DNA of 64,000 nucleotides from an uncultured Pelosinus sp. (lineage in GTDB: Bacteria > Bacillota > Negativicutes > Sporomusales > Acetonemataceae), in NCBI GenBank assembly GCA_900542835.1, contig UQPB01000011.1:3668-67667 (forward strand). Reading direction: 5' to 3'. The notes below the pieces were generated by a model. That model was not told the DNA's origin. It did no database searches and saw nothing but the letters and a program-made list of their open reading frames with translations. The position numbers and the translations under genes are program-made. This document shows, piece by piece, positions 6,087 through 63,247 of the stretch. Position 1 is the stretch's first letter. Each line of letters starts with the position of its first letter.

Positions 6087-6278
6087 AACCTTATTGCAGG
6101 CCGTTCAGAAAGCGCTAGATACTAGGCGGACTCGTGAGCCCAGCAGCGACGCGTACGAAAAGGCACGCTAGCCAAGGGATCGCGAGTCCGTTGCGCAACT
6201 CTTGGCGCTTTAGCGCCTTAGTGTTGACGGCATCCCCCTTGCGGGGAACAACGTAGATAGGGCTTTATCAACGGCCTG
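6087..6278 (+). repeat. Stem-closed structured element, family S, copy 1 (192 bp; candidate small RNA) downstream of the PPIase gene
   Basis: CAGGCCGTT..GAAAGC...GCTTT..AACGGCCTG closing stem; conserved core GATACTAGGCGGACTCGyGAGCCCAGCAGCrACGCGTACGrAAAGGyACGCTAGC shared with copy at 63085. Confidence 0.7.
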
Positions 6279-39477: not shown

Positions 39478-40449
39478 ATGGATATAGATCGCGAGTTAGC
39501 CATGGAGTTTGTCCGGGTAACCGAGGCAGCCGCTATTGCCTGCGGCCGCTGGATGGGAAAAGGCGATAAAATTGCTGCTGATCAGGCTGCCGTTGACGCG
39601 ATGCGGAGCATGTTCGATACTGTCAATATCAGTGGTACTGTCGTTATCGGCGAGGGGGAAATGGACGAGGCCCCTATGCTGTATATCGGTGAGCAGGTCG
39701 GAGCCGGCGGCCTCGAGGTTGATATCGCTGTTGACCCGCTTGAGGGTACTAATCTGGTGGCCAAAGGGCTGCCGGGTGCTATCGCGGTGCTGGCGATTGC
39801 CCCCAAGGGCGGCTTGCTGCACGCTCCCGACATGTATATGGATAAAATTGCCGTTGGACCGAAAGCGGCCGGAAAAGTTCATATCGACGCTCCGGTTAAA
39901 GACAATCTGAAAGCGGTGGCATCCGCGCTCGACCGCCGGGTTGAGGATCTGACCGTCGTTATTCTCGACCGTCCGCGGCACGCGGGAATCATTCAGGAAG
40001 TCCGCGACGCCGGCGCCCGCATTAAACTGATCTCAGATGGTGATGTGTCGCCGGCGATCAATGTCGGCATTGAGGGAACCGGCATTCATATGATGCTGGG
40101 CGTGGGTGGCGCCCCGGAAGGCGTTATTGCCGCCGCTGCGCTGAAGTGCCTGGGCGGCGATATGCAGGGTAAGTTATGGCCGGAAAACGACGCCGATACG
40201 GCACGGGCCCAAAAGATGGGGATTCATGATATTAATAAGGTTCTGACGATTAATGATTTGGTCAGCGGCCAGGACGTCATCTTTGCGGCCACTGCCATCA
40301 CCCAGGGGGATTTGTTGAACCCGCTGCGCTATTTTGGCGGCGGCGTCCGCAGTCACTCGATTGTCATGCGCCACAGTTCAGGAACCGTGCGATTTATCGA
40401 CGCTATTCATACCTATGACCGCACGCCGCTGTTTATTAAGCGGGCCTAG
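39478..40449 (+). CDS. glpX: Fructose-1,6-bisphosphatase class II
   Basis: 323 aa; GlpX family motifs (VIGEGEMDEAPMLYIGE, DPLEGT). Confidence 0.9.
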   Translation: MDIDRELAMEFVRVTEAAAIACGRWMGKGDKIAADQAAVDAMRSMFDTVNISGTVVIGEGEMDEAPMLYIGEQVGAGGLEVDIAVDPLEGTNLVAKGLPGAIAVLAIAPKGGLLHAPDMYMDKIAVGPKAAGKVHIDAPVKDNLKAVASALDRRVEDLTVVILDRPRHAGIIQEVRDAGARIKLISDGDVSPAINVGIEGTGIHMMLGVGGAPEGVIAAAALKCLGGDMQGKLWPENDADTARAQKMGIHDINKVLTINDLVSGQDVIFAATAITQGDLLNPLRYFGGGVRSHSIVMRHSSGTVRFIDAIHTYDRTPLFIKRA

Positions 40450-40612
40450 GTAAGTGCTGATTAAATGAACCCGTCAGATTGACGAGAGATTTTTTCGACT
40501 GGCAAGGAAGAAGCCAGACCGCAGGAATAGCAACGCTCTTGCAAGGACTGGCTGACGCCGCCAGGCGGAAAAAGATCCGTCAAGCTGCGTTGCGTAAATT
40601 AATCAGTGCTTA
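40450..40612 (+). repeat. MITE-like structured element, family L, copy 1 (between glpX and the small membrane-protein/fin genes)
   Basis: See family L description; flanked by CTAGG on both sides; followed by a GC hairpin (40665-40706). Confidence 0.75.
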
Positions 40613-49694: not shown

Positions 49695-50387
49695 ATGCCG
49701 GGAAAAATTTTAATTGTTGATGATGAGGCGTCCATTCGCGAATTGCTTAAATTCAATCTGGAAAAGGCGGGGTTTTCCGTCGCTGAATGCGGTGATGGCA
49801 ATGAAGCCCTGCAACTAGTCAAATCGCACGCTCCCGAACTGCTGGTGCTTGATCTGATGCTGCCCGGACTTGACGGCATTGAGGTCTGCCGGACGCTGAA
49901 AAGCCATCGCGACACCTCGGGAATCCCCATCATCATGCTGACCGCCAAAAATGAGGAAATCGACAAGATTATTGGTCTGGAGATGGGCGCTGATGATTAC
50001 CTGACCAAGCCGTTCAGCCCACGCGAGCTGGTTGCCCGGGTTAAAGCGGTTCTTCGTCGCAGTCAGATGGGCAGCCCTCAGGAAGGGGAGCTGGTCATTG
50101 GCAAGCTGAAGATGAATTTTAGCCGTTACGAGGTTTTCCTCGGCAATGAAAAACTGGAACTGACGCCAAAAGAATACGAGCTGCTCAAGCTGTTTGTTAC
50201 CAATAGCGGCCGGGTATTCAGCCGTGAAAAACTGTTGGAAAAGATCTGGGGCTATGAATATTTTGGCGATACCCGCACTGTCGATGTCCATGTCCGCCAT
50301 ATCCGGGCCAAACTGGAGCAGGAGCCGGAAATCGCCGAGGCAATCGAGACGGTGCGCGGCGTTGGTTACCGCATGCGGGAGTTTTAA
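49695..50387 (+). CDS. OmpR/PhoB-family response regulator (PhoP/PhoB-like)
   Basis: Receiver (LIVDDE..D..MLPGLDG..K) + winged-helix (RTVDVHVRHIRAKLE); sits directly upstream of pstB-phoU. Confidence 0.85.
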   Translation: MPGKILIVDDEASIRELLKFNLEKAGFSVAECGDGNEALQLVKSHAPELLVLDLMLPGLDGIEVCRTLKSHRDTSGIPIIMLTAKNEEIDKIIGLEMGADDYLTKPFSPRELVARVKAVLRRSQMGSPQEGELVIGKLKMNFSRYEVFLGNEKLELTPKEYELLKLFVTNSGRVFSREKLLEKIWGYEYFGDTRTVDVHVRHIRAKLEQEPEIAEAIETVRGVGYRMREF

Positions 50388-50394
50388 CAAAAAC

Positions 50395-50438
50395 TTAACC
50401 TGGCGTTAACAATGCGGCGGTGGCGAACGTGGTATAGT
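50395..50438 (+). promoter_or_regulatory. Pho-box-like direct repeats (TTAACC-N5-TTAACA) plus extended -10 TGgTATAGT upstream of pstB-phoU
   Basis: Hexamer repeats with 11-bp periodicity as in Bacillus PhoP boxes [TT(A/T/C)ACA]. Confidence 0.5.
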
Positions 50439-50467: not shown

Positions 50468-51223
50468 ATGGACATAAAAATACAGGCTAGTAAACTGAAA
50501 CTATATTATGGCGAAACACTCGCACTGAAGAAAATTTCGCTGGATGTGGAAAAAAACCATGTTCTGGCGCTGATCGGCCCTTCCGGCTGCGGCAAATCGA
50601 CGTTTCTCCGCACGCTGAACCGGATGAACGACCTGATTCCAGGCGTGAAGATCGAAGGCGAAGTGCTGATTGACGGCGAGAATGTCTACCATCCGAATAC
50701 GGATGTGGTTATGCTGCGCAAACGCGTCGGCATGGTCTTTCAGCGCCCCAATCCGTTTCCCATGTCAATTTATGAAAATGTGGTTTATGGCCCCCGCATC
50801 CATGGCCAAAGCTCCCGGCAGAAACTGGACGAGATTGTCGAAAAAAGCCTGACTGCGGCGGCTATCTGGGATGAGGTCAAGGACCGCCTGCGCAGTTCGG
50901 CAATGGGCCTTTCCGGCGGTCAGCAGCAGCGGTTGTGCATCGCCCGGCTGCTGGCGGTCGAGCCGGAAGTCCTGTTGATGGACGAACCGTGTTCGGCGCT
51001 TGATCCGATTTCGACGATGAAGATTGAAGAACTGGTCACAGAGTTGAAACAAAAGTATACGATTGTCATGGTTACCCACAATATGCAGCAGGCCGCCCGG
51101 GTATCGGATCATACAGCTTTTTTCCTGAATGGCGATTTAGTGGAATGCGGCCGCACCGACTCGATGTTCACCAGGCCGCATGATAAGCGTACCGAAGATT
51201 ATATTACCGGCAGATTCGGCTAG
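50468..51223 (+). CDS. pstB: Phosphate ABC transporter ATP-binding protein
   Basis: [22 protein letters not shown], typical PstB length 251 aa; Pho-box-like direct repeats upstream. Confidence 0.9.
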
Positions 51224-51225
51224 GA

Positions 51226-51897
51226 GTGATCACTATGAGTGTGAGGCAAAGTTATGATCATGAATTGGAATCGCTGCGCCAGGATCTGTTGGCTATGGGC
51301 ACGGTTGTCGGTACCGCGATCCAGCAGGCGGTGCAGGCTTTAACCAGCCAGAACACCGATCTGGCCAAGCGGATTATTGCCGGTGACGACCTGGTTGATG
51401 ATATGGAGATCGCCATTGAGGATAAATGCATGGTACTGATTGCCACGCAGCAGCCGCTGGCGCGTGACTTGCGGATTATCGGCGCGGCGATGAAAATCAG
51501 CACCGATCTTGAGCGGATGGGCGATCACGCCTATGATATCGCCAAGGTTGCCTGCCGGCTGGCGGATAAGCCGCCGCTGAAAAAGTTTATCGTCATACCC
51601 CGGATGGCGGAAGTGACCCAGCAAATGCTCAGTCAGGCGCTGGATGCCTACGTCCGGCTGGACACGCTGCTGGCCGAGCAAGTCTGCCGCACGGACGACG
51701 AGGTCGACAGGCTCTATGAGCATGTATTCCGTGAACTGCTGACCTATATGATGGAAGATCCGCGCAATATCTCTCACGCCGCCCAGCTGTTATTTGTGGC
51801 CCGTTATCTGGAGCGGATTGCCGATCATGTGACCAATATTTGCGAGTGGACGATTTTTCTGGCGACCGGACAGCGTATGCGCAAACCCGGCAACTGA
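51226..51897 (+). CDS. phoU: Phosphate transport system regulator PhoU
   Basis: Two PhoU repeats with conserved Asp/Glu (DDxVD, ERMGDHA; ERIADH); ATG 51235 is a better-spaced alternative start. Confidence 0.85.
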   Translation: MITMSVRQSYDHELESLRQDLLAMGTVVGTAIQQAVQALTSQNTDLAKRIIAGDDLVDDMEIAIEDKCMVLIATQQPLARDLRIIGAAMKISTDLERMGDHAYDIAKVACRLADKPPLKKFIVIPRMAEVTQQMLSQALDAYVRLDTLLAEQVCRTDDEVDRLYEHVFRELLTYMMEDPRNISHAAQLLFVARYLERIADHVTNICEWTIFLATGQRMRKPGN

Positions 51898-51946
51898 ACC
51901 GGTTAAGAAGAGGGCCCTGGATTGCCAGCAATCCAGGGCCCTCTTC

Positions 51947-53731
51947 TTATTGTTGCTGTTTGGCCAGCGGCAGGGTAAAGGTAAACGTCGTTCCTTCGTT
52001 GAGTTTGCTCTTGGCCCAGATGCGACCGCCCAGCGCCTCGACAATGAACCGGACGATAGCCAGTCCGAGACCGGTTCCGCCGGCCGAACGGGATCTCGCC
52101 TTCTCAACCCGGTAGAAGCGCTCAAAGATCAGCGGCAGGTCGCCGGCGGGAATGCCGATGCCGGTGTCGCTGACCGAGACCTGGGCCGTTTCGCCGTCCA
52201 ACTGACTGCGGACGGTTATGCTGCCGCCGGCTGGCGTATATTTAATTGCATTGTCCAGCAGGTTCAGCAGCACCTGCTTTAGCCAGTCGGCATTGGCCAA
52301 TACGGTTAGTTCCCCGGCGGGCTCAACTGTCAGTGCCAGTCCCTTGCTCTGCCAGCGCGGCGCCAGTTCCCGGACAATCGTGTCAATAAACCGGTTCAGC
52401 TCGACAGGCTCCAGCCGGACCTGATGACGGTAGTCGCTCGAATCCAGCTTGGCCAGCTGCAGCAGGTCGCCTACCAACCGCTGCATCCGTTCGGCTTCGG
52501 CATGAATAATCTGAAGAAACTTTTGGCTAAGCTCCTGATCGGATAGTGCCCCGTCAAGCAGTGTTTCGGCAAAGCCCTTGATCGCCGTAAGCGGCGTTGC
52601 CAGTTCATGCGAAGCGTTGGCGACGAATTCCACCTGACGCTCATGCACTTCCTGCAAGGCGGTAATATCATGAAAAACGCACAGTACACCGTTGGCTTCG
52701 GTTTCGCCGGCGATGGGAGCCAGTGCGATCTGGAACACCCGTTTTTTGCCGCGCAATTCGTTCTTCATTTCAATGGATTGATGCCTGTTGGAGGCGACGG
52801 TCTCCTGCAGGGAACGGTCAAATGCCGTATTGGCGATGATCTGGATATTGTGCTTGCCGAGCATGGCAGGCGTAACGCCAAAGGTGGTAGCTGCCATTTC
52901 ATTATAGGTTTCCATCCGGCCATAGCGGTCAAACAAAATGACGGCATTATCCATATGGGCCAGAATCAGCTCCAGCTTGCGTTTTTCCGCCAGGGTTTCG
53001 TTTACCGTATCGTCAAGACTGGATGCCAGCTTATTCAACGTATGCGCCAGCAGCTCAATTTCATCGCCGGTATGGATATGCACCCGCTTATCAAGGTGTC
53101 CCTGGGCCATTTCCTGGGCAACGCGGGTGATCTCCTCCAGCGGCGAGGTAAATTTTCCAGCCAGACGGATACTGATCAAGACCGCCAGCAGCGAGGTCAG
53201 CGCGAACGCCGCCAGCAGCACGGAGCGGATATTGGCAAAGCTGGCCTCCAGCGGCGTCAGACTGCTGGCGACGCGGACAACGCCGGCCACGCGGCCCTGT
53301 TGCAGCAGCGGTACGGCGGTATAAAGGAAGTTCTCGCTCAGCGTCGCGCTGTAGCGGATGAAGCTGCCTGTATTTCCCGACAGGGCGGCGGCTACCTCCG
53401 GCCGGTCGTGGTGGTTGTCGAAGATTTCCGGCGGTTCATAGGAGTCGGCAATTACCTGACCTTCGGCGGTAATGATCGTGATCCGCAGCGGAATTTGCTG
53501 ATGCAGTTCCTTGACTTTTTCATCCAGCTGCGGCCGGCTTAACGGTGATAGATAATAGTCGCGGACCAGCTCTTCGGTGATGCGGGCCTGTGTGATCAGC
53601 TGTGTTGTCAGGCTGGCGACATTGGTGCGGTGAAAATACCAGAGAATATAGGCGCCCAGCGTTGCCAGCGCTCCCACTGTCAACAGCAGCAGTGTAATGA
53701 TTAACCGGGTTCTGATGCTTTGCGTCAGCAT
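51947..53731 (-). CDS. Sensor histidine kinase, PhoR-like (TM - extracytoplasmic domain - HAMP - PAS - HisKA - HATPase)
   Basis: HisKA H-box VANASHELATPLTAIKG, N/G1/G2 boxes; start at internal Met MLTQSIR (53729-53731) with RBS aaaggagcgg. Confidence 0.8.
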   Translation of the reverse strand: MLTQSIRTRLIITLLLLTVGALATLGAYILWYFHRTNVASLTTQLITQARITEELVRDYYLSPLSRPQLDEKVKELHQQIPLRITIITAEGQVIADSYEPPEIFDNHHDRPEVAAALSGNTGSFIRYSATLSENFLYTAVPLLQQGRVAGVVRVASSLTPLEASFANIRSVLLAAFALTSLLAVLISIRLAGKFTSPLEEITRVAQEMAQGHLDKRVHIHTGDEIELLAHTLNKLASSLDDTVNETLAEKRKLELILAHMDNAVILFDRYGRMETYNEMAATTFGVTPAMLGKHNIQIIANTAFDRSLQETVASNRHQSIEMKNELRGKKRVFQIALAPIAGETEANGVLCVFHDITALQEVHERQVEFVANASHELATPLTAIKGFAETLLDGALSDQELSQKFLQIIHAEAERMQRLVGDLLQLAKLDSSDYRHQVRLEPVELNRFIDTIVRELAPRWQSKGLALTVEPAGELTVLANADWLKQVLLNLLDNAIKYTPAGGSITVRSQLDGETAQVSVSDTGIGIPAGDLPLIFERFYRVEKARSRSAGGTGLGLAIVRFIVEALGGRIWAKSKLNEGTTFTFTLPLAKQQQ

Positions 53732-54034
53732 AATCCGCTCCTTTAGTTCGTATTGTTTAGGGCAGTCGCTTATGACAGTCTTCTGAACTGCAAACAGGCG
53801 TGAGGTTGAAAATGTGTAAACCGGAAACACTATAGTCAGCCATTCCGCATTGGCGGCGCACCTGCTTGTACAGATGCACTAGGGACTGCTTCTGGTTCAG
53901 CACAGCTTTTTCCTGTTCCGGATAGCACGGCTCAGCATTATTCCAATAAACAAATGAGTCCGATTATCTTAACAGTAGAGGATATTTGCCAGAAATACAA
54001 GATGCTGCTACAATATATCCTGTTGCCCGGCGAT

Positions 54035-54118: not shown

Positions 54119-55255
54119 GTGTCGCAGCGACGTAGGACCATATTGCTGGCGTCGGCTTCGATCGGTTCCGGCCACATGCAGGCCGCGAAGGCGATCGAGA
54201 CCGCCTGGCGGGAGGCCTTTCCCGCGGACGAAGTCATTGTCGCCGATTCCATGGATGGCGGCAGTTCCTATGTACAGCATGTGCTTAAGGAAACCTACCT
54301 CAAAATGATTGCCGTAACACCGTTTCTTTATGACACGCTGTACCATCTTTCCCAGGGGCTGAGTCCGGGTTCGCGCGGGCAAAGCCTGTTTTCCTGGTTT
54401 ATGCAAAAGACCATGCAGCAGTTGTACAGCCGGCATCAGCCGGACCTGGTCATTTGTACCCACCCATTCCCCTGTGCGGCCATGGCTTATTTAAAACGCC
54501 ACCACCGTATCAGCGCCCCCCTTGCCGGGGTAATCACCGATTTTGCCGTTCATGGCACCTGGATCTACCCGGAGACGGATTTATATACGGTAGCCGCCGA
54601 CGAGCTAAAAGCAGAGCTGGTTGGGCGGGGCATCGCCGCCGACCGTATCGATGCCTGCGGCATCCCCGTGCAGCCGCCGCTGCCGCCGGCAGCAGCCGAT
54701 TATCAAAAGCTGGGGCTGCAGCCCGGATTGCCTGTCGTTATGCTGATGGGAGGCGGTCTTGGCCTTGGTCCGCTGCGGGAAGTGCTGCTTGCACTTGATT
54801 CAGTTGCGGTACCGCTGCAGATTGCCGCTGTCGCCGGCAATAATTCCGGCCTGCAGCAGGAACTCAGTGCGGCTGCTGCCGGGCTGCGCCATCAGACCAC
54901 TGTTTTCGGCTATACGCCATATGTGCGGGAACTGATGCAAGCCGCCGCTCTTTTGATCACCAAGCCGGGGGCGCTGACAATCAGCGAAGCTCTGGCTGCA
55001 GGACTGCCGATGCTGTTGTTTCAATCCTTTCCCGGTCAGGAGACGGACAATGCTGCTTTCTTGCTTGAGCGGGGCGCTGCCGGCTGGTTTGAGCCGGACG
55101 GGGCGGAACAGATCGTCCGGCTTCTGACAGACAGCGGCGAGCGCCGCCAGGCTCTTGCCGCGATCAACCGGATTGCCCGGCCCGCTTCTGCCAAAGCGGC
55201 TGTGGCGGCTATCGCCGCCCGGCTGCTGCCAGCGGGGCAGGCCGCAGGTATGTAG
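54119..55255 (+). CDS. Glycosyltransferase, MGDG-synthase / UgtP-like (GT28 family) diacylglycerol glycosyltransferase
   Basis: N-terminal RTILLASASIGSGHMQAAKAI (MGDG synthase N-domain) and C-terminal GT-B nucleotide-binding half; GTG start; Pho-box-like repeats upstream. Confidence 0.7.
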   Translation: MSQRRRTILLASASIGSGHMQAAKAIETAWREAFPADEVIVADSMDGGSSYVQHVLKETYLKMIAVTPFLYDTLYHLSQGLSPGSRGQSLFSWFMQKTMQQLYSRHQPDLVICTHPFPCAAMAYLKRHHRISAPLAGVITDFAVHGTWIYPETDLYTVAADELKAELVGRGIAADRIDACGIPVQPPLPPAAADYQKLGLQPGLPVVMLMGGGLGLGPLREVLLALDSVAVPLQIAAVAGNNSGLQQELSAAAAGLRHQTTVFGYTPYVRELMQAAALLITKPGALTISEALAAGLPMLLFQSFPGQETDNAAFLLERGAAGWFEPDGAEQIVRLLTDSGERRQALAAINRIARPASAKAAVAAIAARLLPAGQAAGM

Positions 55256-55273: not shown

Positions 55274-55999
55274 ATGCAACTGCAGGAGATCGCGGAGGCT
55301 TCCATGGTCGGCGGCGTCAAGCTGCTGCTGGCGACAGCGGCACCGCTGCAGACATTGTTTGATAAACCCTGCGTTACACATGTGTTCTGCAACCGTCAGG
55401 CAATAACGATCCTGTCGGCAGATGGTTTTTATGACAGCGCCGCTTTTTACTTGCGCTACCTTGAGGCGCTGAACGCTGGCGTAGCCTGGGCTGATCAGGG
55501 GTGGAAGAACGTCAATCATTATTTTTCCCCCGACTCACGTCAGGGCTTGTGGTATTTCTCCACCGCTGTTGCCGAATTCAACCGTTATTTTAACCACAGC
55601 ATTCGCTGCATGCGGCGGGCCGATCCGGCCGGAGCCTGCTTTCTGCTTGGAGCGGCGGCGCATTTACTGCAGGATCTGTGTGTGCCGCATCATGCCAGAG
55701 GCAAAGTGTTCTGCGGCCACAAACAATATGAGGATTGGGCGGGACGGCATTACAGCCGCTTTGCTGCCGGCAGCGGCGGCATATACCGCCCCGGCCGTGC
55801 CGAATCCCTGCTGCTTGCCAATGCCGCGGTCAGCGCCGATTTGTTCAGCCAGGTCGCCAGTGAGCATGACGAAGCCTCCTATCAGGCGGCGACAGCGATC
55901 CTGCTGCCGCTGGCGCAGCGGACAACAGCGGGGCTGCTGCTGCGTTTTTATCAGCAAATGTGCCAGAGAATGCCCAGCCACGCGGTCTTTGTTGCCTAG
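55274..55999 (+). CDS. Zinc-dependent phospholipase C domain protein (cytoplasmic or membrane-associated, no signal peptide)
   Basis: THVFCNRQAI and LQDLCVPHHARG align with the Zn-ligand segments of B. cereus PLC / C. perfringens alpha-toxin N-domain; 18-nt gap after the glycosyltransferase gene. Confidence 0.6.
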   Translation: MQLQEIAEASMVGGVKLLLATAAPLQTLFDKPCVTHVFCNRQAITILSADGFYDSAAFYLRYLEALNAGVAWADQGWKNVNHYFSPDSRQGLWYFSTAVAEFNRYFNHSIRCMRRADPAGACFLLGAAAHLLQDLCVPHHARGKVFCGHKQYEDWAGRHYSRFAAGSGGIYRPGRAESLLLANAAVSADLFSQVASEHDEASYQAATAILLPLAQRTTAGLLLRFYQQMCQRMPSHAVFVA

Positions 56000-56045: not shown

Positions 56046-56099
56046 TTAACAAAAACGTAACAATCGCTTAACATATCGGCATTGGCGATGCGGTAATAT
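56046..56099 (+). promoter_or_regulatory. Triple Pho box (TTAACA-N5-GTAACA-N5-TTAACA) and -10 TAATAT upstream of pstS
   Basis: Three hexamers at exact 11-bp spacing, -10 about 20 nt downstream. Confidence 0.55.
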
Positions 56100-56144: not shown

Positions 56145-57002
56145 ATGAATTTCAAAAAAGTTATTGCTTTCGCCGCGGTTGCCGCTTTATCCGCCGGTCT
56201 GATTGCCGGCTGCGGCGGCTCCAAGGAGGCGCCGAAACAGGCAGCCCAGCCGCAGGGTATTGAAGGCAAGGTATCCGCATCCGGGTCCAGCGCGCTGCTG
56301 CCGCTGCTAAAAGCCGCCCAGGAAGATTTTCAGAAAAAGAATGCCAAGGTTACGGTTAATATTTCCGCCGGCGGTTCGTTTACCGGTCAAAACCAGGTAG
56401 CGTCCGGCGCTGTTGATATCGGTAACTCTGATGTTGCCCTGCAGGACAGTCTGAAGGACAAAGGCCTGATTGAACATAAGCTGGTCGGTATTCCGTTTGT
56501 CTTTATTGCTAATCCTTCTGTAAGTGTCGATTCGCTGACCGAACAGCAATATGTGGATATCCTGACCGGTAAAATTACCAACTGGAAGGATGTCGGCGGC
56601 AAAGACGAGAAAATTACGATCCTCAGCCGGGCTAAATCATCCGGTTCGCGGGCGACCATCGAGCAAGTTGTACTCAAAGGCAAATCGATTACCGATAATG
56701 TTGTCATTCAGGATTCCAACGGCGCGCTCCGGACCGCGGTTGCCACAACTCCCGGTTCTATCGGCTACGTTGACGCCGCCTACGTGGATAAAACTGTAAA
56801 AGGCCTGAAATACAATGGTGTGGAGTATTCGATCGATAACGTTACCGGCGGCAAGTATCCGGTATTCTCCTTTGGCCGCATGTTTACCAAAGGACAGCCG
56901 GCAGGCGCGGTGAAGGCGTTTATCGATTACGCGACCAGCAAGGAATTCCAGGAAGCCTTTGCTGAAAAGAACGGCTTTATTCCGGTTACGAAAATGAAAT
57001 AG
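56145..57002 (+). CDS. pstS: Phosphate ABC transporter substrate-binding lipoprotein
   Basis: Lipobox LIAGCGGS; PstS/PBP family-2 phosphate-binding motifs (SGSSA, GYVD); three PhoP-type boxes upstream. Confidence 0.85.
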   Translation: MNFKKVIAFAAVAALSAGLIAGCGGSKEAPKQAAQPQGIEGKVSASGSSALLPLLKAAQEDFQKKNAKVTVNISAGGSFTGQNQVASGAVDIGNSDVALQDSLKDKGLIEHKLVGIPFVFIANPSVSVDSLTEQQYVDILTGKITNWKDVGGKDEKITILSRAKSSGSRATIEQVVLKGKSITDNVVIQDSNGALRTAVATTPGSIGYVDAAYVDKTVKGLKYNGVEYSIDNVTGGKYPVFSFGRMFTKGQPAGAVKAFIDYATSKEFQEAFAEKNGFIPVTKMK

Positions 57003-57043
57003 TGTTTTTGCTCCCTGCGTAGGGAGAGGATTTCCGCCTTGAG

Positions 57044-57107
57044 CAGCCTCCGGCTAATTGCCCGCATACACCTGTATACGGCGACGGGCCGGAGGCTGTG
57101 GTGTTTT
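57044..57107 (+). terminator. Terminator/attenuator after pstS (CAGCCTCCGG...CCGGAGGCTG + TGGTGTTTTT), preceded by a small hairpin CTCCCT-GCGT-AGGGAG
   Basis: 10-bp stem with large internal loop and T-run; typical partial terminator separating pstS from downstream pst genes. Confidence 0.65.
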
Positions 57108-57133
57108 TGAATAAACAAGAAAATAGGTGTCGT

Positions 57134-58915
57134 ATGAACCGTAAACTAAACCAAGCCTGGCTAACGATAAGGCAGTGGCGGCTTGTCCCGCCGGCAGTGT
57201 TTCAATTGGCGAAGATTAGTTTGCAAAAAAAGATGCTTCTGGTTGTCGGTCTGCTTACCTGTGTCTCTATTTGTGTGGCGATTGTTGGCCTGCGGGGCAT
57301 TGCGACAGCTAACGACCGGCTGCGCGAGACCTACCAGCTGCGGATTGTTCCTTTTACCGAATTGAAGGCAGTTAATGATAATTATGTGATGATCATTGAT
57401 ACTACCCACAAGCTTAGGAATGGCAACATGACCTGGCAGGTTGCCGGTGAACGGCTGGAGGCTGCGACCAGGGCGATCGAGCTGCACTGGGCCAACTATC
57501 AGGCAAAGGGCGGCAGCGGCGAGCGGCAGTTAATCGCTCAGATTGAAATGCAGTTTGGTATTGCCAACACGGAGTTAGAAAATCTTAAACGGATTGTCGG
57601 CAGTCAGGATATGAATGCGCTGGCTGATTTTATGATTAATGTCATGTATTCGGGCATAGAACCGATTTCGGTGCAAATATCCGCCCTGATTGACTGGGAG
57701 CTGCAGGCGGCGCGTGAGGATTACGAGGCTGCTCAGGAACATTACCGGCTGCAGGCGGGATTGTTTATCGCCCTCGTCGCCGCCGGACTTGTGCCGGCAC
57801 TTGGCTTTTCCCTTGCCGTTATCCGGCTGACGCTGCTGCCGATACGGGAAATGGTAACGGCAGTAGAACAGATCGCTGTCGGCAACCTGGCAGTCAACCG
57901 GATGGAAGTTGTCAGTAACGACGAGGTCGGCCGCCTGGGAGCCGCTATCAATACGATGCTGGGCAATCTTAACCGGCTGGTCGAGCAGGTACGGCTTTCG
58001 GCCGGTAAGGTTGCCGCGGCTTCGGCGGAGACAGTCGCCGCTGCCGGCGGCGTGGAACAGACCGCAGCCGGCCTGCTTGACGGCAGCCGGCAACTGCACC
58101 GGCATGCCAATGAGGGCAGCGGTTCAATTGTGGAAGTAGCAAAGGTACTGGTTGAATTGTCCTCCTTGCTGGAAATTGCCCGCATCCGCGCCGAATCGAC
58201 TGCTGAAAAGGCGGTTGAGACAACACAGGCCACGCTGGAAGGCAAAACCGCTGTGGCTGCGACTGTTATGCGGATGCAGGAAATCGAACGGAAAACAGTT
58301 GATACCGAAAGCCGCATACAGACCCTGGAAGAGTACTCCCGCCAGATTGCGCTGATTAACCAGACCATTACCGGGATTGCCGCCCAGACAAATCTACTGG
58401 CACTTAACGCGGCGATCGAGGCGGCGCGAGCAGGGGAGGCCGGCCGCGGCTTTGCCGTTGTCGCCCGCGAGGTGACGAGCCTTGCCGAGCAATCCCGCAG
58501 CGGGGCTAGACAGGTTTCCGAACTGGTGGAAAAAATTTCGCAGGGAACCGCCGCCGTTGTCTGCGGCATCGATGAAAGCCGCCAGCTGGCGGCTGAGGGC
58601 GTGGAACTGGCGGCCGCGGCCGGCGGCCGGCTTGATCATATTGTGCAAACCGTTGGCGCCAGCAGCCGGGAAATCAACGGCGTTCTGGAAGTAACGCAGG
58701 AAGATGTGGCTCAATCGGAGCGTATCATCGAACTCATCGATTCGCTGGCGACGATTATTGAAAGCACAGCGACCAATGCCCGGCAGGTAACTGCGGCTGC
58801 GCAGCAGACCTCGACCATAATGGCTTCGCTGACCGCGGCGGCGGAGGAATCCAATTCGCTGGCGGCCGGTCTGCGTTCAGAGATTGGCTATTTCCAGACA
58901 GAACAGGAGGCTTAA
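57134..58915 (+). CDS. Methyl-accepting chemotaxis protein with 4-helix-bundle (4HB_MCP) sensor, HAMP and MA domains
   Basis: Two TM segments flanking a ~170-aa periplasmic domain; HAMP; highly conserved MA signalling domain ([24 protein letters not shown]). Confidence 0.85.
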
Positions 58916-58917
58916 CG

Positions 58918-59229
58918 ATGGATGTAACCGTAGAAGACGGCCGGGCAGTCATGCGCATAGCCGGCGAGTTTCAGGGAAAAAACGCCGCTGACGTGCGCGA
59001 CGCGCTGCTCGCATGCCTGCAGGATGGCCATCGTCATGTTGTGATCGATCTGAGTGGCGTCAGCCTGATCAATGCCACCGGAATCGGCGTTCTGGTCAGC
59101 GTCCAGCAGCGCTTGGAGGCGCTGGGAGGCAAGCTGAGCCTGTATGGTCTGGAGCAGCCGGTCGGCCAGGTGCTCGAGCGAACCCGGCTTCACCGCAGCT
59201 TCGATAGTGAACCGCCGGCCGAATCTTAA
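58918..59229 (+). CDS. STAS-domain protein (anti-sigma-factor antagonist, SpoIIAA/RsbV-like)
   Basis: 103 aa; DLSGVSLINATGIGVL matches the SpoIIAA phospho-loop region (Thr instead of Ser); ATG 3 nt after the MCP stop codon, RBS inside the MCP 3' end. Confidence 0.7.
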   Translation: MDVTVEDGRAVMRIAGEFQGKNAADVRDALLACLQDGHRHVVIDLSGVSLINATGIGVLVSVQQRLEALGGKLSLYGLEQPVGQVLERTRLHRSFDSEPPAES

Positions 59230-59249
59230 CAAAAAATTAACATGAAATT

Positions 59250-59282
59250 AATAGAATCGGAATTGTTGTCCATTATAATTCT
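59250..59282 (+). promoter_or_regulatory. Putative internal promoter (-10 TATAAT at ~59274, AT-rich UP-like tract) upstream of the leader element and pstC
   Basis: TATAAT read directly; -35 weak; lies in the 265-nt gap between the STAS gene and pstC. Confidence 0.35.
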
Positions 59283-59297
59283 TGTGAAGAGTCTTGG

Positions 59298-59452
59298 TAA
59301 GCGATGATTAAATGAACCGGTCAGGCAGGCGAAAATTTTTTCACCTGGCAAGGAAGCGAGAGCGCAGGAAGAGCAGCTCTTTCAAGGTCTTGCTGACGCA
59401 GCCAGACGGCAACAGCTCCGCCAGCTTGGGCTGCGTGACTTAATCAGTGCTG
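59298..59452 (+). repeat. MITE-like structured element, family L, copy 2 (leader of pstC-pstA-EAL/GGDEF inside the pst operon)
   Basis: See family L description; ends 42 nt before the pstC ATG; TATAAT 20 nt upstream. Confidence 0.75.
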
Positions 59453-59494
59453 ACCTTGCGCTTGTGTCAATGCGAATAAGGATGTGAACATTTA

Positions 59495-60388
59495 ATGCCG
59501 GCAATCGATCAGGGAAGCAGCCACAAACTGAAGCTGATGTATGACAACTATATCCGGATGCTGTTTGTGGCTTCCGCTGCGTTAATGGCAGTGATTATTT
59601 TTGCGATCATTTTGTTTATCGGCCAGCAGGGGCTGCTGACCTTTAAAGAAGTCACGCCGCTGGAGTTTTTCCTGTCAGCAAAATGGGACCCGACTGACGG
59701 CCGTTACGGCGCCTTAAGCTTTATTCTCGGCTCAATCTGTACGACCTTTCTCGCCGTGCTCATCGGTGCGCCGCTGGGACTGGCGGGAGCGGTTTTCCTG
59801 GCTAAGATCGCTCCCCAGAGCGTCAGACGGTTCATGCGCCCGGCAACGGATTTATATGTAGCCGTGCCGTCAGTTGTTTACGGCTATATCGGGCTTACCG
59901 TTCTTATTCCGTTTATCCGCGTGCATTTTGACGCCGGATCGGGATTTGGACTGCTGGCAGCATCGCTGATACTGGCGGTTATGATTCTGCCGACCGTTAT
60001 TACTATTTCCGAGGACGCCATTCGTTCTGTGCCGGCAAATCTGGAGGAAGCGTCGCTGGCTCTCGGCGCTACCCGCTGGCAGACTGTTCGCCGCGTCCTG
60101 CTGCCGGCGGCGGCTCCCGGCATTCTAACGGCGATTATCCTGGCTATGGCCAGGGCGATTGGCGAAACAATGGCGGTGCAGATGGTAATCGGCAACACGC
60201 CGCTGCTGCCCAAGTCGCTGCTGACACCGACCGCAACCCTTACCAGTGAAATTGTTGTTGAGATGGGCAATACGCCGTTTGGGTCGACCTGGGGCAACTC
60301 CCTGTTCTTAATGGCGCTGGTCCTGCTGGCTATTTCCTTATTGATGATTGTGTGCATCCGTCATATCGGCAAGAGGAGGTTTGCCTGA
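59495..60388 (+). CDS. pstC: Phosphate ABC transporter permease
   Basis: 6 TM, EAA-like loop EEASLALGATRWQTVRRVLLP; typical PstC. Confidence 0.9.
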   Translation: MPAIDQGSSHKLKLMYDNYIRMLFVASAALMAVIIFAIILFIGQQGLLTFKEVTPLEFFLSAKWDPTDGRYGALSFILGSICTTFLAVLIGAPLGLAGAVFLAKIAPQSVRRFMRPATDLYVAVPSVVYGYIGLTVLIPFIRVHFDAGSGFGLLAASLILAVMILPTVITISEDAIRSVPANLEEASLALGATRWQTVRRVLLPAAAPGILTAIILAMARAIGETMAVQMVIGNTPLLPKSLLTPTATLTSEIVVEMGNTPFGSTWGNSLFLMALVLLAISLLMIVCIRHIGKRRFA

Positions 60389-61245
60389 TGTCGCCTCGGT
60401 TTAGCGATAAATTAGCAACTGCAGTCATGTGGCTTGCGGCGTTGCTGATTCTTGGCATCCTGTTCTGCTTTTTGGGGTATATGCTGATCCAAGGCCTGCC
60501 GGTTCTGTCCTGGAATTTCATTTTCGGCATGTCGAGCGATACTCAGGCCGGCGGCGGCGTCGGTCCGCAGCTGTTCAATTCGTTTTATATCCTGATCCTA
60601 TCGCTGGCGTTTGCCATTCCTGTGGCTGTCGGTGCCGGCATTTATCTGGCTGAATACGCCTCGGACAACTGGCTGACCAATCTGGTCCGGCTCAGCACGG
60701 AAAGCCTGGCTACCGTTCCGTCCATCGTACTCGGTCTGTTCGGAATGATCGTATTTGTCAATATAGCCGGCTTTGGTATCAGCATTATTGCCGGCTCGCT
60801 GTCACTGATGCTGTTAAACCTGCCGGTACTGGTACGGGTAACGGAAGAATCGCTGCGGACGGTTCCGGCTTCTTTCCGTGAAGCCAGCCTGGCGCTGGGG
60901 GCGACCAAGTGGCAAACCATCTGGCGTGTCATTCTGCCTAATGCCCTGCCGGGAATTATTACCGGTGTAACCCTGACTGCCGGCAGGGCCCTGGGCGAAA
61001 CCGCCATTCTTATTTTTACCGCCGGCACCACCGTGTCGCGCAATTTGCCTGATATCGACCTGCTAGCCTCGGGCGAGACGCTGGCTGTGCATATGTGGTA
61101 TGTCATGGCGCTAGGCCTGGTGCCTGACCGGCTGGATATCGCCAACGGCATTGGCGCACTGCTGATTATTGTAGTGCTGCTGTTTAATCTCGCACTGACT
61201 GTGCCTGCTGAATTGATGCGGCGCCGCATGGGCGGCGGCCGTTGA
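60388..61245 (+). CDS. pstA: Phosphate ABC transporter permease
   Basis: TGATG overlap with pstC stop; EAA loop REASLALGATKWQTIWRVILP. Confidence 0.9.
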   Translation: MSPRFSDKLATAVMWLAALLILGILFCFLGYMLIQGLPVLSWNFIFGMSSDTQAGGGVGPQLFNSFYILILSLAFAIPVAVGAGIYLAEYASDNWLTNLVRLSTESLATVPSIVLGLFGMIVFVNIAGFGISIIAGSLSLMLLNLPVLVRVTEESLRTVPASFREASLALGATKWQTIWRVILPNALPGIITGVTLTAGRALGETAILIFTAGTTVSRNLPDIDLLASGETLAVHMWYVMALGLVPDRLDIANGIGALLIIVVLLFNLALTVPAELMRRRMGGGR

Positions 61246-61259
61246 CAGGAGAGAGAAAT

Positions 61260-63050
61260 ATGCCTGGCGATTTTACAATACCTGACCCTGATTCGCACAC
61301 GGATTCCGTGGAGGCTGAACTACGGTCAATTATCGCCAATCGCGATATTTATACCGTGTTTCAGCCGATTGTTTCGCTGACTGACGCCACGATTATCGGC
61401 TACGAAGCGTTAAGCCGCGGCCCTGCGGGTTCGTCGCTGGAGCAGCCCGACCGTCTGTTTGCCGCTGCCGCCGCTTTGGACCTGCTGTGGGAACTGGATC
61501 TCTTATGCCGCTTCCGGGCGTTGGAGACGGCCAACGGCCTGCTGGAAAACTATCTGCTGTTCATCAATGTCGACCCCAAGATCATCAATGACCCGCGGTT
61601 TCAGAAAGGCTTGACCCGCGGCTATTTAAACGCCGCCGCGCATGATATTCTGGGCATTGTCTTTGAAATCACCGAGAAGACGGCGGTGCAGGATTATAAA
61701 GCATTTCGCCGCATTCTCGACAATTATACCAGTCAGGGCTATCAGATTGCGCTTGATGATACCGGTTCCGGTTATTCCGGCCTCACCTTGCTGGCAGAGA
61801 CTCGGCCGCAGTATGTCAAGCTGGATATGGAGCTGGTCAGGCATATTGACAAGGATTCGCTGAAGCAGGCCCTGATCCGCTCTCTGTGCCAGTTTGCCGA
61901 CGCCAGCAATATTAAGCTGATCGCCGAAGGCATTGAGACTGTCAACGAGCTGGAGTGCCTGATCGACATCGGTGTTCATTATGGTCAGGGCTTTTTTCTG
62001 CAGCGGCCGGCCGCCGGACCTATTGCTCTCAATGCGGCTATGGTACTGCATATCCGCGAGCGGAATGACGCAAAGCAAAGGCAAATGTTCTGTCCGACTC
62101 TATCTGTTCCTATCGGTGAGATCGCCCGCCGTGATCCCTCGTTTCCGCCGCAGGCGTCGGGCCAGGAAATGATTGCTTATTTTAATCGCAATCCGGCGGT
62201 ACAGGGAATTCCGATTGTTGAGAACGGCAGGCCGCTGGGATTATTATCAAAGCATAAGTTTCTTGGCCACCTGGCTACGCAATACGGTGTCGCCATTTAT
62301 ATGAACCGCCCGGTACATCTTCTGATGGATAAAAATCCGTTGATTGTCGACTGGAGTACGCCGCTGGAGCAGGTGAGCACATTTGCCGTGGCCCGTTCGG
62401 ACGAACGCCTGTATGATTATATCATTGTCACCCAGGATAACGCCTATTACGGCATAACCACCGTAAAAGCGCTGCTGGAAAAAACCACTCAGTTAGAAGT
62501 TACCCGGGCGAAATACGCAAATCCCCTGACCGGGCTGCCAGGCAACTTTCTGATTGAGCAGGAATTGAAGCGGGCTGTCTGCGACGGTCAGGATTATGCG
62601 GTGCTGTATTTTGACCTGGATAATTTCAAGGCCTATAATGACCTATATGGATTTGAGAATGGTGATAAAATTCTTATCTTTACAGCGCAGACAATTCAAG
62701 CCGGCCTGGACCAATATCAGCCGTCCGGGGCTTTTTTGGGCCATATCGGCGGCGATGATTTTGTTGCTGTAATCAAGAATGATAACGCAGCCGGCTTATG
62801 TGAAGCGATTATTGCCGCATTTGACCGCCAGATAGGCGCTTTTTACAGTGAGCGAGACCGTGAGCAGGGATTTGTTATCTCCAAGAACCGGCATGGCAGT
62901 GACGAACAGTTCCCTTTGATTTCGATCTCAATCGGTGTGGTTACCGGCCGTCGCAATCGCTTTACCAGCCATCTGCAGATTGGCGAAGCCGCCAGCCTGG
63001 TCAAGAAGGAGTGCAAGCTGACCTGGCAGAGCTGCTATCATATCGCCTGA
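61260..63050 (+). CDS. c-di-GMP phosphodiesterase-type protein: EAL domain - CBS pair - degenerate GGDEF (GGDDF) domain
   Basis: EAL motifs intact (EALSR, DDTGSGYSG, EGIET, QGFFLQRP); central tandem CBS-like segments; GGDEF domain with NPLTGLPGN, DLDNFKAYND but active-site GGDDF; begins 12 nt after the pstA stop. Confidence 0.85.
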   Translation: MPGDFTIPDPDSHTDSVEAELRSIIANRDIYTVFQPIVSLTDATIIGYEALSRGPAGSSLEQPDRLFAAAAALDLLWELDLLCRFRALETANGLLENYLLFINVDPKIINDPRFQKGLTRGYLNAAAHDILGIVFEITEKTAVQDYKAFRRILDNYTSQGYQIALDDTGSGYSGLTLLAETRPQYVKLDMELVRHIDKDSLKQALIRSLCQFADASNIKLIAEGIETVNELECLIDIGVHYGQGFFLQRPAAGPIALNAAMVLHIRERNDAKQRQMFCPTLSVPIGEIARRDPSFPPQASGQEMIAYFNRNPAVQGIPIVENGRPLGLLSKHKFLGHLATQYGVAIYMNRPVHLLMDKNPLIVDWSTPLEQVSTFAVARSDERLYDYIIVTQDNAYYGITTVKALLEKTTQLEVTRAKYANPLTGLPGNFLIEQELKRAVCDGQDYAVLYFDLDNFKAYNDLYGFENGDKILIFTAQTIQAGLDQYQPSGAFLGHIGGDDFVAVIKNDNAAGLCEAIIAAFDRQIGAFYSERDREQGFVISKNRHGSDEQFPLISISIGVVTGRRNRFTSHLQIGEAASLVKKECKLTWQSCYHIA

Positions 63051-63056
63051 TCCTTA

Positions 63057-63083
63057 CAGACGCGCAAGCGTCTTGTTTTGTTG
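63057..63083 (+). terminator. Terminator hairpin AGACGC-GCAA-GCGTCT + TGTTTTGTT after the EAL-GGDEF gene (copy 1 of a 26-bp direct repeat)
   Basis: Read directly; an identical copy is at 63221-63247. Confidence 0.6.
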
Positions 63084-63084
63084 A

Positions 63085-63220
63085 AACCTTATTTTCAGGC
63101 CGTTCAGAAAGCCCCGGATACTAGGCGGACTCGCGAGCCCAGCAGCAACGCGTACGGAAAGGTACGCTAGCAATGGGATTGCCGAGGCAACAACGTAAGT
63201 GGGGCTTTATCAACGGCCTG
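63085..63220 (+). repeat. Stem-closed structured element, family S, copy 2 (136 bp) flanked by a duplicated terminator
   Basis: Same ends and core as copy 1; compensatory changes in closing stem (GCTA/TAGG vs CCCG/GGGG); 26-bp direct repeats on both sides. Confidence 0.7.
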
Positions 63221-63247
63221 CAGACGCGCAAGCGTCTTGTTTTGTTT
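63221..63247 (+). terminator. Second identical copy of the terminator hairpin (direct repeat flanking the inserted element)
   Basis: 26/26 nt identical to 63057-63082. Confidence 0.6.

Follow-up and report, generated by a model that had tools for sequence, protein, structure and literature searches.

The control of chemotaxis and of cyclic di-GMP (c-di-GMP) by phosphate starvation has been worked out only in Pseudomonas. CtpH and CtpL of P. aeruginosa are the only characterised Pho-induced chemoreceptors and both mediate phosphate taxis; CtpH binds phosphate directly and its sensor is a 4-helix bundle, while CtpL has a sensor domain of 286 amino acids (aa) that is not a 4-helix bundle and needs PstS. 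At the level of c-di-GMP, RapA of P. fluorescens is the homologue of the EAL-CBS-GGDEF protein PA3258 (PMC12900916). The rapA gene has a Pho box at which PhoB~P activates transcription, and under phosphate limitation the enzyme depletes c-di-GMP; PA3258 carries a GGDDF motif and shows no cyclase phenotype, and the GGDDF enzyme GSU1937 is active (PMC8835794). A third related case is CheS, a protein made up of a STAS domain only, which is encoded in the che cluster of S. meliloti and A. fabrum with a gene for a methyl-accepting chemotaxis protein (MCP) and two cheY genes, binds CheA and speeds up the dephosphorylation of CheY1~P, and is not an anti-sigma antagonist. The gene order around cheS is icpA-cheS-cheY1. 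Here we report on a stretch of 64,000 nucleotides (nt) from an uncultured Pelosinus sp. (contig UQPB01000011.1, referred to as the window), in which an MCP, a STAS-only protein and a predicted c-di-GMP phosphodiesterase are encoded head to tail on one strand together with the phosphate transport genes pstS, pstC and pstA, as follows.

56145-57002, plus strand: pstS, lipoprotein phosphate-binding protein (TIGR02136, 212 bits, above cut-off; lipobox LIAGC)
57134-58915, plus strand: MCP (TarH and 4HB_MCP_1, HAMP and MCPsignal, all above the Pfam cut-offs)
58918-59229, plus strand: STAS-only protein of 103 aa (PF01740; TIGR00377)
59495-60388, plus strand: pstC (equivalog TIGR02138 passed, 293 bits)
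60388-61245, plus strand: pstA (equivalog TIGR00974 passed, 262 bits)
61260-63050, plus strand: EAL-CBS-GGDEF protein with GGDDF motif, predicted c-di-GMP phosphodiesterase of the RapA/PA3258 type (domain search and motif comparison)

All open reading frames (ORFs) of the initial annotation were found where it had placed them, and its domain calls hold in Pfam and NCBIfam. It had rightly described the STAS gene as starting tightly behind the MCP gene, with a ribosome-binding site (GGAGG) inside the MCP 3' end, the start lying 2 nt after the stop codon. The EAL gene begins 14 nt after pstA, where a gap of 12 nt had been given. Its proposal that the block forms one transcription unit is not supported in view of a conserved hairpin after pstS and of a separate, conserved box with -10 element before pstC-pstA-EAL. 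We predict three units from sequence comparison, namely pstB-phoU, pstS followed by an attenuating hairpin and MCP-STAS, and pstC-pstA-EAL-CBS-GGDDF. The region would represent a PhoP/PhoR-type phosphate-starvation island of a Sporomusaceae bacterium (Negativicutes) with at least three separately promoted units. As one joint explanation, which includes the activation of these units by PhoP~P and its consequences discussed below, we regard this as moderately probable. The elements on which it is built are:

50384-50411, plus strand: triple box of pstB-phoU, 17 of 18 hexamer positions agreeing with TTAACA, one mismatch to the full search pattern
56046-56099, plus strand: triple box of pstS (56046-56073) with the -10 element TAATAT (56094-56099), exact match
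57043-57108, plus strand: hairpin downstream of pstS with a T-run behind it, resembling a terminator or attenuator (folding z = -3.5)
59226-59279, plus strand: triple box of pstC-pstA-EAL (59226-59253) with the -10 element TATAAT (59274-59279), exact match
63058-63082, plus strand: intrinsic terminator-like site ending the pstCA-EAL unit (terminator scan)

The boxes are tandem direct TTAACA repeats at 11 bp spacing just upstream of a -10 element. When the pattern TTAACA-N5-KTAACA-N5-TTAAYA was searched against a background of 100 shuffles, three matches were obtained in the 64-kb window, before pstB, pstS and pstC, compared to 0.00 in the shuffles. The triple box before pstS was already known from the initial annotation and is exact, whereas the boxes before pstC and pstB, as well as the spacer of 265 nt between STAS and pstC, had been missed. 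At both pstS and pstC the last box is separated from the -10 element by 20 nt, and the pstC array overlaps the stop codon of the STAS gene. These elements recur in related genomes, whose loci are given L numbers here. The pstB array is also present in L005 (Anaerosporomusa subterranea) and L010, the pstS array is conserved in L005, L009 and L010, and the pstC array with its -10 element is nearly invariant in L005 and in the metagenome-assembled genome (MAG) L009, while the remaining spacer diverges; a box between pstS and pstC was also found in L011, L014, L015, L030 and L034. Among 183 kb of non-redundant related loci the array has 31 matches versus 0.05 in the shuffles, nearly all of them upstream of pst genes, the MCP or a glycolipid synthase, and in promoter alignments A2 (Sporomusa-type MCP promoters) and A3 the box and the -10 element appear as conserved footprints between diverging flanks. 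Because the boxes precede pstB, pstS and pstC as well as orthologous MCP-STAS operons far from pst, the control by phosphate limitation that had initially been predicted from a single array appears now more strongly indicated. As a side observation, L006 (7825-7840), L008 and L013 share an invariant 16-mer, ATGTCTACTTGATTCT, approximately 25-35 nt upstream of the box array (alignment A2, columns 70-85), which could be the site of a second regulator or part of a divergent promoter.

The hairpin after pstS, also seen in the initial annotation, is real. It consists of a GC-rich 13-bp stem (57043-57099) with an inner stem, followed by GGUG-UUUUU (57100-57108), and similar hairpins follow pstS in L005, L009 and L010, which carry the MCP-STAS insertion, and in L011, L015 (Propionispora) and L030 (Sporomusa acidovorans), which do not carry it and have pstC as the next gene. 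Since the uninserted relatives show box-pstS-hairpin and then box-pstCA, the two-promoter layout is, judged from this comparison, older than the insertion, i.e. the ancestral arrangement is box-pstS-hairpin followed by box-pstC-pstA, and MCP-STAS was placed between the hairpin and the pstC promoter. A single polycistronic operon, in which one Pho promoter before pstS drives pstS-MCP-STAS-pstC-pstA-EAL, would agree with six genes on one strand and with the terminator scan, which gave no terminator-like site in the STAS-pstC and pstA-EAL gaps, so that read-through from the pstS promoter into pstC is possible; but it has to explain the conserved hairpin and U-run after pstS, the exact and conserved box with TATAAT before pstC, the layout shared by the uninserted loci and the additional box array before the MCP gene of A. 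subterranea, and we consider it unlikely. There are only ~25 nt between the T-run and the MCP ATG, which leaves no space for a separate MCP promoter downstream of the hairpin. The box scan detected no box or recognisable promoter between hairpin and MCP in the window, L009 and L010, while A. subterranea keeps a box array at this place. The GTG at 57098 was rejected as an alternative MCP start, because this codon falls within the hairpin and the alignment of the orthologues begins with the ATG at 57134.

The gene pair itself is not a peculiarity of this strain. Full-length MCP orthologues including the sensor form a discrete set with 40-70% identity, and the MCP and STAS genes are adjacent in all 12 distinct loci. 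The closest group, with 57-70% identity, consists of A. subterranea, two MAGs and the window and shows the order pstS-MCP-STAS-pstC-pstA-EAL. A restriction of this order to one strain, considered initially, does not apply: the layout is kept in A. subterranea and two further lineages. At 45% identity, in L011, MCP-STAS is convergent with pstA-pstC-pstS in an island that also holds the EAL gene, the pair of glycolipid synthase and phospholipase C genes, a CYTH-CHAD gene and a PhoR-like kinase gene. At 40-46% identity (Sporomusa malonica and several metagenome contigs) the pair is located far from pst and is usually followed by genes for a CheY-like receiver and a protein of ~290 aa. Six of these free-standing loci (L006, L008, L013, L095, L099, L174) have the sole box array of the respective locus 110-190 nt before the MCP gene, followed by a conserved GGATAAT; L012 has two boxes only, L011 only a weak box element, and L102 ends without upstream sequence. 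Since free-standing loci carry their own box arrays, MCP-STAS is, on this comparative evidence, a module of the Pho regulon wherever it is located. A YajQ-family gene was observed as constant convergent neighbour of the free-standing operon (L006, L008, L013, L174). Some YajQ members bind c-di-GMP.

The missing box raises the question whether MCP-STAS in the window lineage is still expressed. It could be a neutral and silent passenger, which came to lie behind the pstS terminator and ahead of the pstC promoter, was deprived of its own promoter and is no longer transcribed, as the missing box or recognisable promoter in the window, L009 and L010 and the strong hairpin would allow. Nevertheless, both ORFs are intact in four lineages with saturated synonymous sites, the dN/dS values of MCP and STAS are ~0.06-0.14 compared to 0.01-0.06 for pstSCA (at saturated synonymous sites), all these genes being under purifying selection, the ribosome-binding site of STAS and its tight coupling to the MCP gene have been retained, and the U-run is 4 nt off the stem, which we take as typical of leaky terminators. 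We thus see very little room for a silent passenger. With such dN/dS values MCP and STAS must be expressed despite the absence of a box after the hairpin in the window, L009 and L010, and the simplest explanation would be read-through from the pstS promoter.

With regard to the receptor, Pfam, topology and structure model agree on an MCP with a 4HB-type sensor between pstS and pstC, in line with the initial annotation. A first transmembrane helix at residues ~33-55 is followed by a periplasmic 4-helix bundle (~56-207, approximately 150 aa), a second transmembrane helix (~208-232), HAMP and the signalling domain; the sensor was modelled as a confident 4-helix bundle (predicted local distance difference test, pLDDT, 85.5), and its nearest solved structures are the sensor domains of Tsr, Tar, Vc1313 and MCP2201, at 9-16% identity. 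The two most conserved polar motifs are both found at the membrane-distal apex of the bundle. The first, DTxHK[VL]RNGNMxW (residues 89-101), spans the last part of helix 1 together with the loop that leads to helix 2, and reads HKVSDxHMAW in the Sporomusa-type group; the second, FMIxxMYSxIEPxS (residues 166-179), is located at the start of helix 4. This apex is rich in His, Lys and Arg, and in Tar-type receptors it is the region touched by small ligands and binding proteins. The analogy to CtpL that had been drawn initially fails at the family level, because the CtpL sensor is large and not a 4-helix bundle, whereas the sensor in the window is a Tar/Tsr-like bundle of ~150 aa and in this respect resembles CtpH.

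We propose phosphate as the most likely ligand of this sensor, bound without a helper as in CtpH or presented by PstS, which would dock on the conserved apex. MCP-STAS could, however, be induced by the Pho system and respond to something other than phosphate, e.g. a source of organic phosphorus, a different nutrient or a repellent, in which case starved cells would swim differently without tracking phosphate. The sequence itself points to no particular ligand, receptors with 4-helix bundles recognise a wide variety of compounds, and the apex motif varies between the groups; furthermore, the receptor keeps its boxes far from pstS, which shows that closeness to pstS is not essential. On the other hand, CtpH and CtpL, the characterised Pho-induced receptors, mediate phosphate taxis, the receptor stands twice beside pstS in different arrangements, and the conserved apex is rich in basic residues and His. 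Therefore, we treat a different cue as a minority possibility, though the most serious of the alternatives considered here.

The role of the STAS protein is related to the question whether it can be phosphorylated. It passes the anti-sigma-antagonist superfamily model (TIGR00377, 61.4 bits versus a cut-off of 53.45), and its nearest solved relatives are TM1442 (E = 2e-9) and SpoIIAA (2e-6). Moreover, in the so-called stage-1 F7 clusters the mcpA-like receptor is accompanied by an anti-sigma antagonist as well as a serine phosphatase. Both facts would be compatible with MCP-STAS as sensory input to gene regulation, in which STAS acts as anti-sigma antagonist in partner switching, as assumed for the ancestral F7 clusters. 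But the window protein reads N52-A53-T54-G55, with Ala53 at the position of the canonical phospho-serine of SpoIIAA/RsbV (DS(S/T)G); Ala is also found in L005 and L009, which like the window have the pst-embedded pair, and in L012, while seven other orthologues have Ser. In addition, no gene for an anti-sigma kinase, PP2C phosphatase or sigma factor adjoins MCP-STAS in any locus inspected, and the ancestral partners, i.e. the CheY-like receiver and a MshEN-CheX fusion, are components of the chemotaxis type. Partner switching is thus quite improbable, and we infer by analogy that STAS acts as a CheS-like adaptor on the receptor/CheA complex and not as a phosphorylated anti-sigma antagonist.

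The MshEN-CheX fusion is the ~290-aa protein mentioned above, which is encoded by the last gene of the MCP-STAS-CheY operon (L006:10663-11535, L008:10692-11576, L013:4217-5089, L095, L102). Towards its C-terminus the protein matches CheC/CheX (3IIC, E = 0.0025) and towards its N-terminus the N-terminal c-di-GMP receptor domain of MshE (5HTL, E = 6e-5), the latter region carrying two 24-residue motifs that are 5 residues apart. Such fusions have been catalogued before (PMC5013675); a functional study was not found in the literature searched. Their position suggests that, in a receptor operon behind Pho boxes, the dephosphorylation of CheY~P is controlled by c-di-GMP. The 64-kb window encodes neither a CheY nor a MshEN-CheX partner like those of the Sporomusa-type loci.

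The third component, the EAL-CBS-GGDEF enzyme, consists of EAL (residues 20-250), CBS (285-338) and GGDEF (422-513) domains. The EAL signature is complete and conserved (EALxR, N, ExxE, DD, K, EGxE, QG), and HIGGDDF is present in 17 of 17 full-length orthologues including the gammaproteobacterial ones, the eighteenth, L068, being a truncated ORF without this region. A genome scan with this protein yielded 80 loci, which were annotated by tblastn with the proteins of the window. All seven Sporomusaceae-type scan loci have the EAL gene within the pst/pho cluster, and at least four different arrangements occur:

L014, soil MAG
L015, Propionispora
L016, soil MAG
L017, Pelosinus
L018, Sporomusa sp. 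KB1
L030, S. acidovorans
L034, S. aerivorans

Together with the four loci obtained through the MCP (window, L005, L009, L011) this amounts to eleven; in L021, a more distant MAG, the EAL gene adjoins pstSCAB. The arrangements include MGDG-PLC-EAL-pstS-pstC-pstA (MGDG, glycolipid synthase; PLC, phospholipase C), kinase (minus strand)-EAL-pstS and EAL-MGDG beside a reversed pstA-pstC-pstS. A box precedes the EAL gene itself in L016 and its operon in Propionispora and the window. Judging from these loci, the pst/pho cluster of Sporomusaceae-type genomes consistently includes the EAL gene. The initial annotation had called the enzyme functionally equivalent to RapA, which understates the relation, since it shares the domain order and the GGDDF motif with PA3258 and probably belongs to the same RapA/PA3258 family. 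Full-length gammaproteobacterial homologues have 31-34% identity to it; upstream of them, the proteobacterial Pho box (CTGTCAT-N4-CTGTCAT) was matched once only, by 11 of 14 positions at approximately -240 in Marinobacter. In L009 (8536-10326) the protein is called with 515 aa only, while the tblastn similarity runs on to 10326, which suggests a frameshift or an assembly error.

Taken together, we propose the following course of events. At low phosphate, PhoP~P would activate all three promoters. PstS would be made in excess, and read-through of the hairpin would provide lower amounts of the receptor and its STAS partner, which are expected to be translationally coupled. The receptor would feed into the flagellar Che pathway and steer the cells up a phosphate gradient, with STAS as a CheS-like adaptor at the receptor/CheA complex. 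From the internal promoter, pstC-pstA would be expressed with the RapA-like phosphodiesterase, c-di-GMP would fall, and cells would shift from sessile to motile, favouring motility over attachment. In sum, scavenging, swimming and steering would become one starvation response.

Several points weigh against this picture and should be mentioned together. Binding of the regulator and induction are read from sequence comparison, and the presence of flagellar and che genes in the MAG is presumed. With its strong stem and U5 run the pstS hairpin could terminate efficiently, and the window lineage has lost the MCP's own box, which is still present in A. subterranea. The sensor has only 9-16% identity to solved bundles, and the apex motif differs between the receptor groups (HK[VL]RNGNM versus HKVSDxHM). 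A metagenome scan based on the alignment of the sensor domain gave ~70 remote homologues of the sensor (27-35% identity) that had no STAS or pst neighbours, hence the wider sensor family carries no phosphate signal; the same scan gave no further pst-embedded lineages. The STAS role is argued from the gene order and the loss of the phospho-serine, the assignment to RapA/PA3258 from the published architecture and motif, and most of the ~70 more distant Firmicutes homologues of EAL-CBS-GGDDF have no pst gene nearby.

A more far-reaching version would be that the Sporomusaceae possess a dedicated, Pho-controlled circuit for phosphate foraging, in which the apex reads phosphate or PstS-bound phosphate, the STAS protein tunes CheA/CheY of one receptor, a RapA-family phosphodiesterase lowers c-di-GMP and a MshEN-CheX protein provides feedback. 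The STAS protein, non-phosphorylatable and made stoichiometrically with the receptor, would tune CheA/CheY for that receptor alone, and in Sporomusa-type genomes c-di-GMP would be read back into the receptor pathway by the MshEN-CheX phosphatase of the receptor operon. We regard the complete circuit as speculative and rather unlikely. If true, it would be of a kind not described in Firmicutes-type bacteria or anaerobes, and the link of RapA to Pho would be ancient and common to Pseudomonas and Negativicutes.

The surroundings of the six genes fit a phosphate-starvation island:

49695-50387, plus strand: OmpR-family response regulator, PhoP/PhoB-like (best NCBIfam match PhoB TIGR02154, 270 bits, below the cut-off of 296)
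50468-51223, plus strand: pstB (TIGR00972, 416 bits, above cut-off)
51226-51897, plus strand: phoU (TIGR02135, 249 bits, above cut-off)
51947-53830, minus strand: PhoR/PnpS-type histidine kinase (NF046044 PnpS, 412.6 bits, above the cut-off of 400)
54119-55255, plus strand: glycolipid synthase-like (diglucosyl-diacylglycerol-synthase-like) gene (PF06925)
55274-55999, plus strand: Zn phospholipase C-like gene (PF00882)

As noted initially, pstB-phoU is located elsewhere, 4 kb upstream of the pstS block and behind the regulator gene, with both models above their cut-offs; the kinase gene is on the opposite strand. The order regulator-pstB-phoU is kept in relatives, and sporulation genes are found just downstream of the region. 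The box scan gave no array before the window's response regulator gene and none before its glycolipid synthase gene. A triple box does precede the orthologues of the glycolipid synthase/phospholipase C genes in L005, L009, L010, L015 and L034. The two genes probably serve a phosphate-sparing remodelling of lipids, which suggests that the replacement of phospholipids by glycolipids under phosphate starvation is part of the same island. In L011 (5553-7759) the stretch from the lipid genes to MCP-STAS contains a gene for a histidine phosphatase in addition to the CYTH-CHAD gene, whose domains are related to polyphosphate. The convergent phoU and kinase genes of the window are separated by a perfect palindromic hairpin of 20 bp (51905-51948), probably a bidirectional terminator, which produced spurious miRNA matches in Rfam.

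The unusual length of the STAS-pstC spacer can be explained by a dispersed repeat:

59295-59465, plus strand: window-specific insertion into the pstC leader, ~165 nt long, a copy of a small dispersed repeat; L005 and L009 lack it

This insertion is ~83% identical to the window's positions 40449-40610, both copies being intergenic; its ends resemble short inverted repeats, and Rfam gave no match for it. The idea that the pstC leader holds a riboswitch or an attenuator RNA was rejected, since the leader (59280-59500) shows no significant fold (z = -0.2), no Rfam family was found in the whole region from 49 to 64 kb other than spurious miRNA matches to hairpins, and the repeat explains the extra length. 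At the other end of the unit, the terminator after the EAL gene (AGACGCGCAAGCGTCT followed by TGTTTTGTT) is present twice, at 63057 and 63221, with 26 of 26 positions identical. The two copies flank ~140 nt (window 63057-63246) which are ~90% identical to the intergenic region 6097-6278, and this segment looks like a second small mobile repeat that was inserted into the terminator with duplication.

Each element of the locus has a precedent, i.e. Pho boxes, a Pho-induced RapA, Pho-dependent phosphate taxis and a STAS gene in a che operon. In contrast, neither an MCP encoded in a pst locus nor Pho control in Negativicutes was reported in the literature searched, in agreement with the initial impression that the arrangement had not been described. 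Within this literature, a Pho-boxed MCP-STAS operon in Negativicutes, the capture of MCP-STAS by the Anaerosporomusa clade at a site flanked by the terminator of pstS and the promoter of pstCA, and the family-wide presence of a RapA-type phosphodiesterase in the pst/pho cluster, here joined to pstCA, all appear undescribed. The locus and its relatives indicate that control of chemotaxis and of c-di-GMP, the latter by an enzyme apparently of the same protein family as RapA, may also belong to the Pho regulon of anaerobic, spore-forming Negativicutes. The comparative data lead to testable predictions, such as the box (at least three TTAACA at 11-bp spacing), the receptor family with its conserved apex, and a loss of the STAS phospho-serine exactly where the genes of the CheY and CheX partners are missing. 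A cultured organism with the same layout exists in A. subterranea. If the locus turned out to be only a rearrangement of the regulon, its value would be modest: it would illustrate neatly how an operon with Pho boxes was captured, with a terminator on one side and an internal promoter on the other.

Compared with known systems, the promoters resemble those of PhoP-PhoR in B. subtilis, in which tandem direct repeats at 11-bp spacing replace the -35 element upstream of pst genes, and the TTAACA hexamer fits the B. subtilis PhoP consensus TT(A/T/C)ACA. An 11-nt repeat unit is general for PHO boxes. They differ in that pstS and pstCA are driven separately here and pstB-phoU stands apart, adjoining the regulator gene; phoU is present in the window island, whereas according to the literature B. 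subtilis lacks it. Each array in the window has three repeats, whereas PhoP promoters of B. subtilis usually need four.

The receptor shares with CtpH and CtpL the probable activity at low phosphate, and its fold class, the 4-helix bundle, is that of CtpH, a likeness that concerns the fold. There is no detectable specific sequence relationship to either receptor, and NCBIfam gives matches to generic MCP equivalogs only, far below cut-off; CtpL differs by its 286-aa non-bundle sensor. To our knowledge, neither of the Pseudomonas receptors is encoded in a pst locus or paired with a STAS gene, whereas in the receptor clade of the window the MCP gene follows directly on pstS.

The likeness to RapA/PA3258 comprises the order EAL-CBS-GGDEF, the GGDDF variant (of PA3258), an intact EAL site and a position behind a Pho box. 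RapA is a free-standing gene, while the enzyme described here is joined to the pstC-pstA transcription unit of a spore-former of the Negativicutes, and the downstream effectors of RapA in Pseudomonas are LapD/LapG/LapA.

Finally, CheS of S. meliloti and A. fabrum is likewise a single-domain STAS protein encoded near MCP and CheY genes, to which the Sporomusa-type operon MCP-STAS-CheY-(MshEN-CheX) corresponds. CheS belongs to another phylum and is likened here by description and gene order, the window lineage has no adjacent CheY and phosphatase genes, and its STAS operon is Pho-boxed, which was not reported for cheS. By this analogy CheS is the closest documented counterpart of a STAS gene tied to a chemoreceptor, and the protein of the window would be a second, independent STAS-only protein of this kind, which bears on the poorly understood role of CheS itself.

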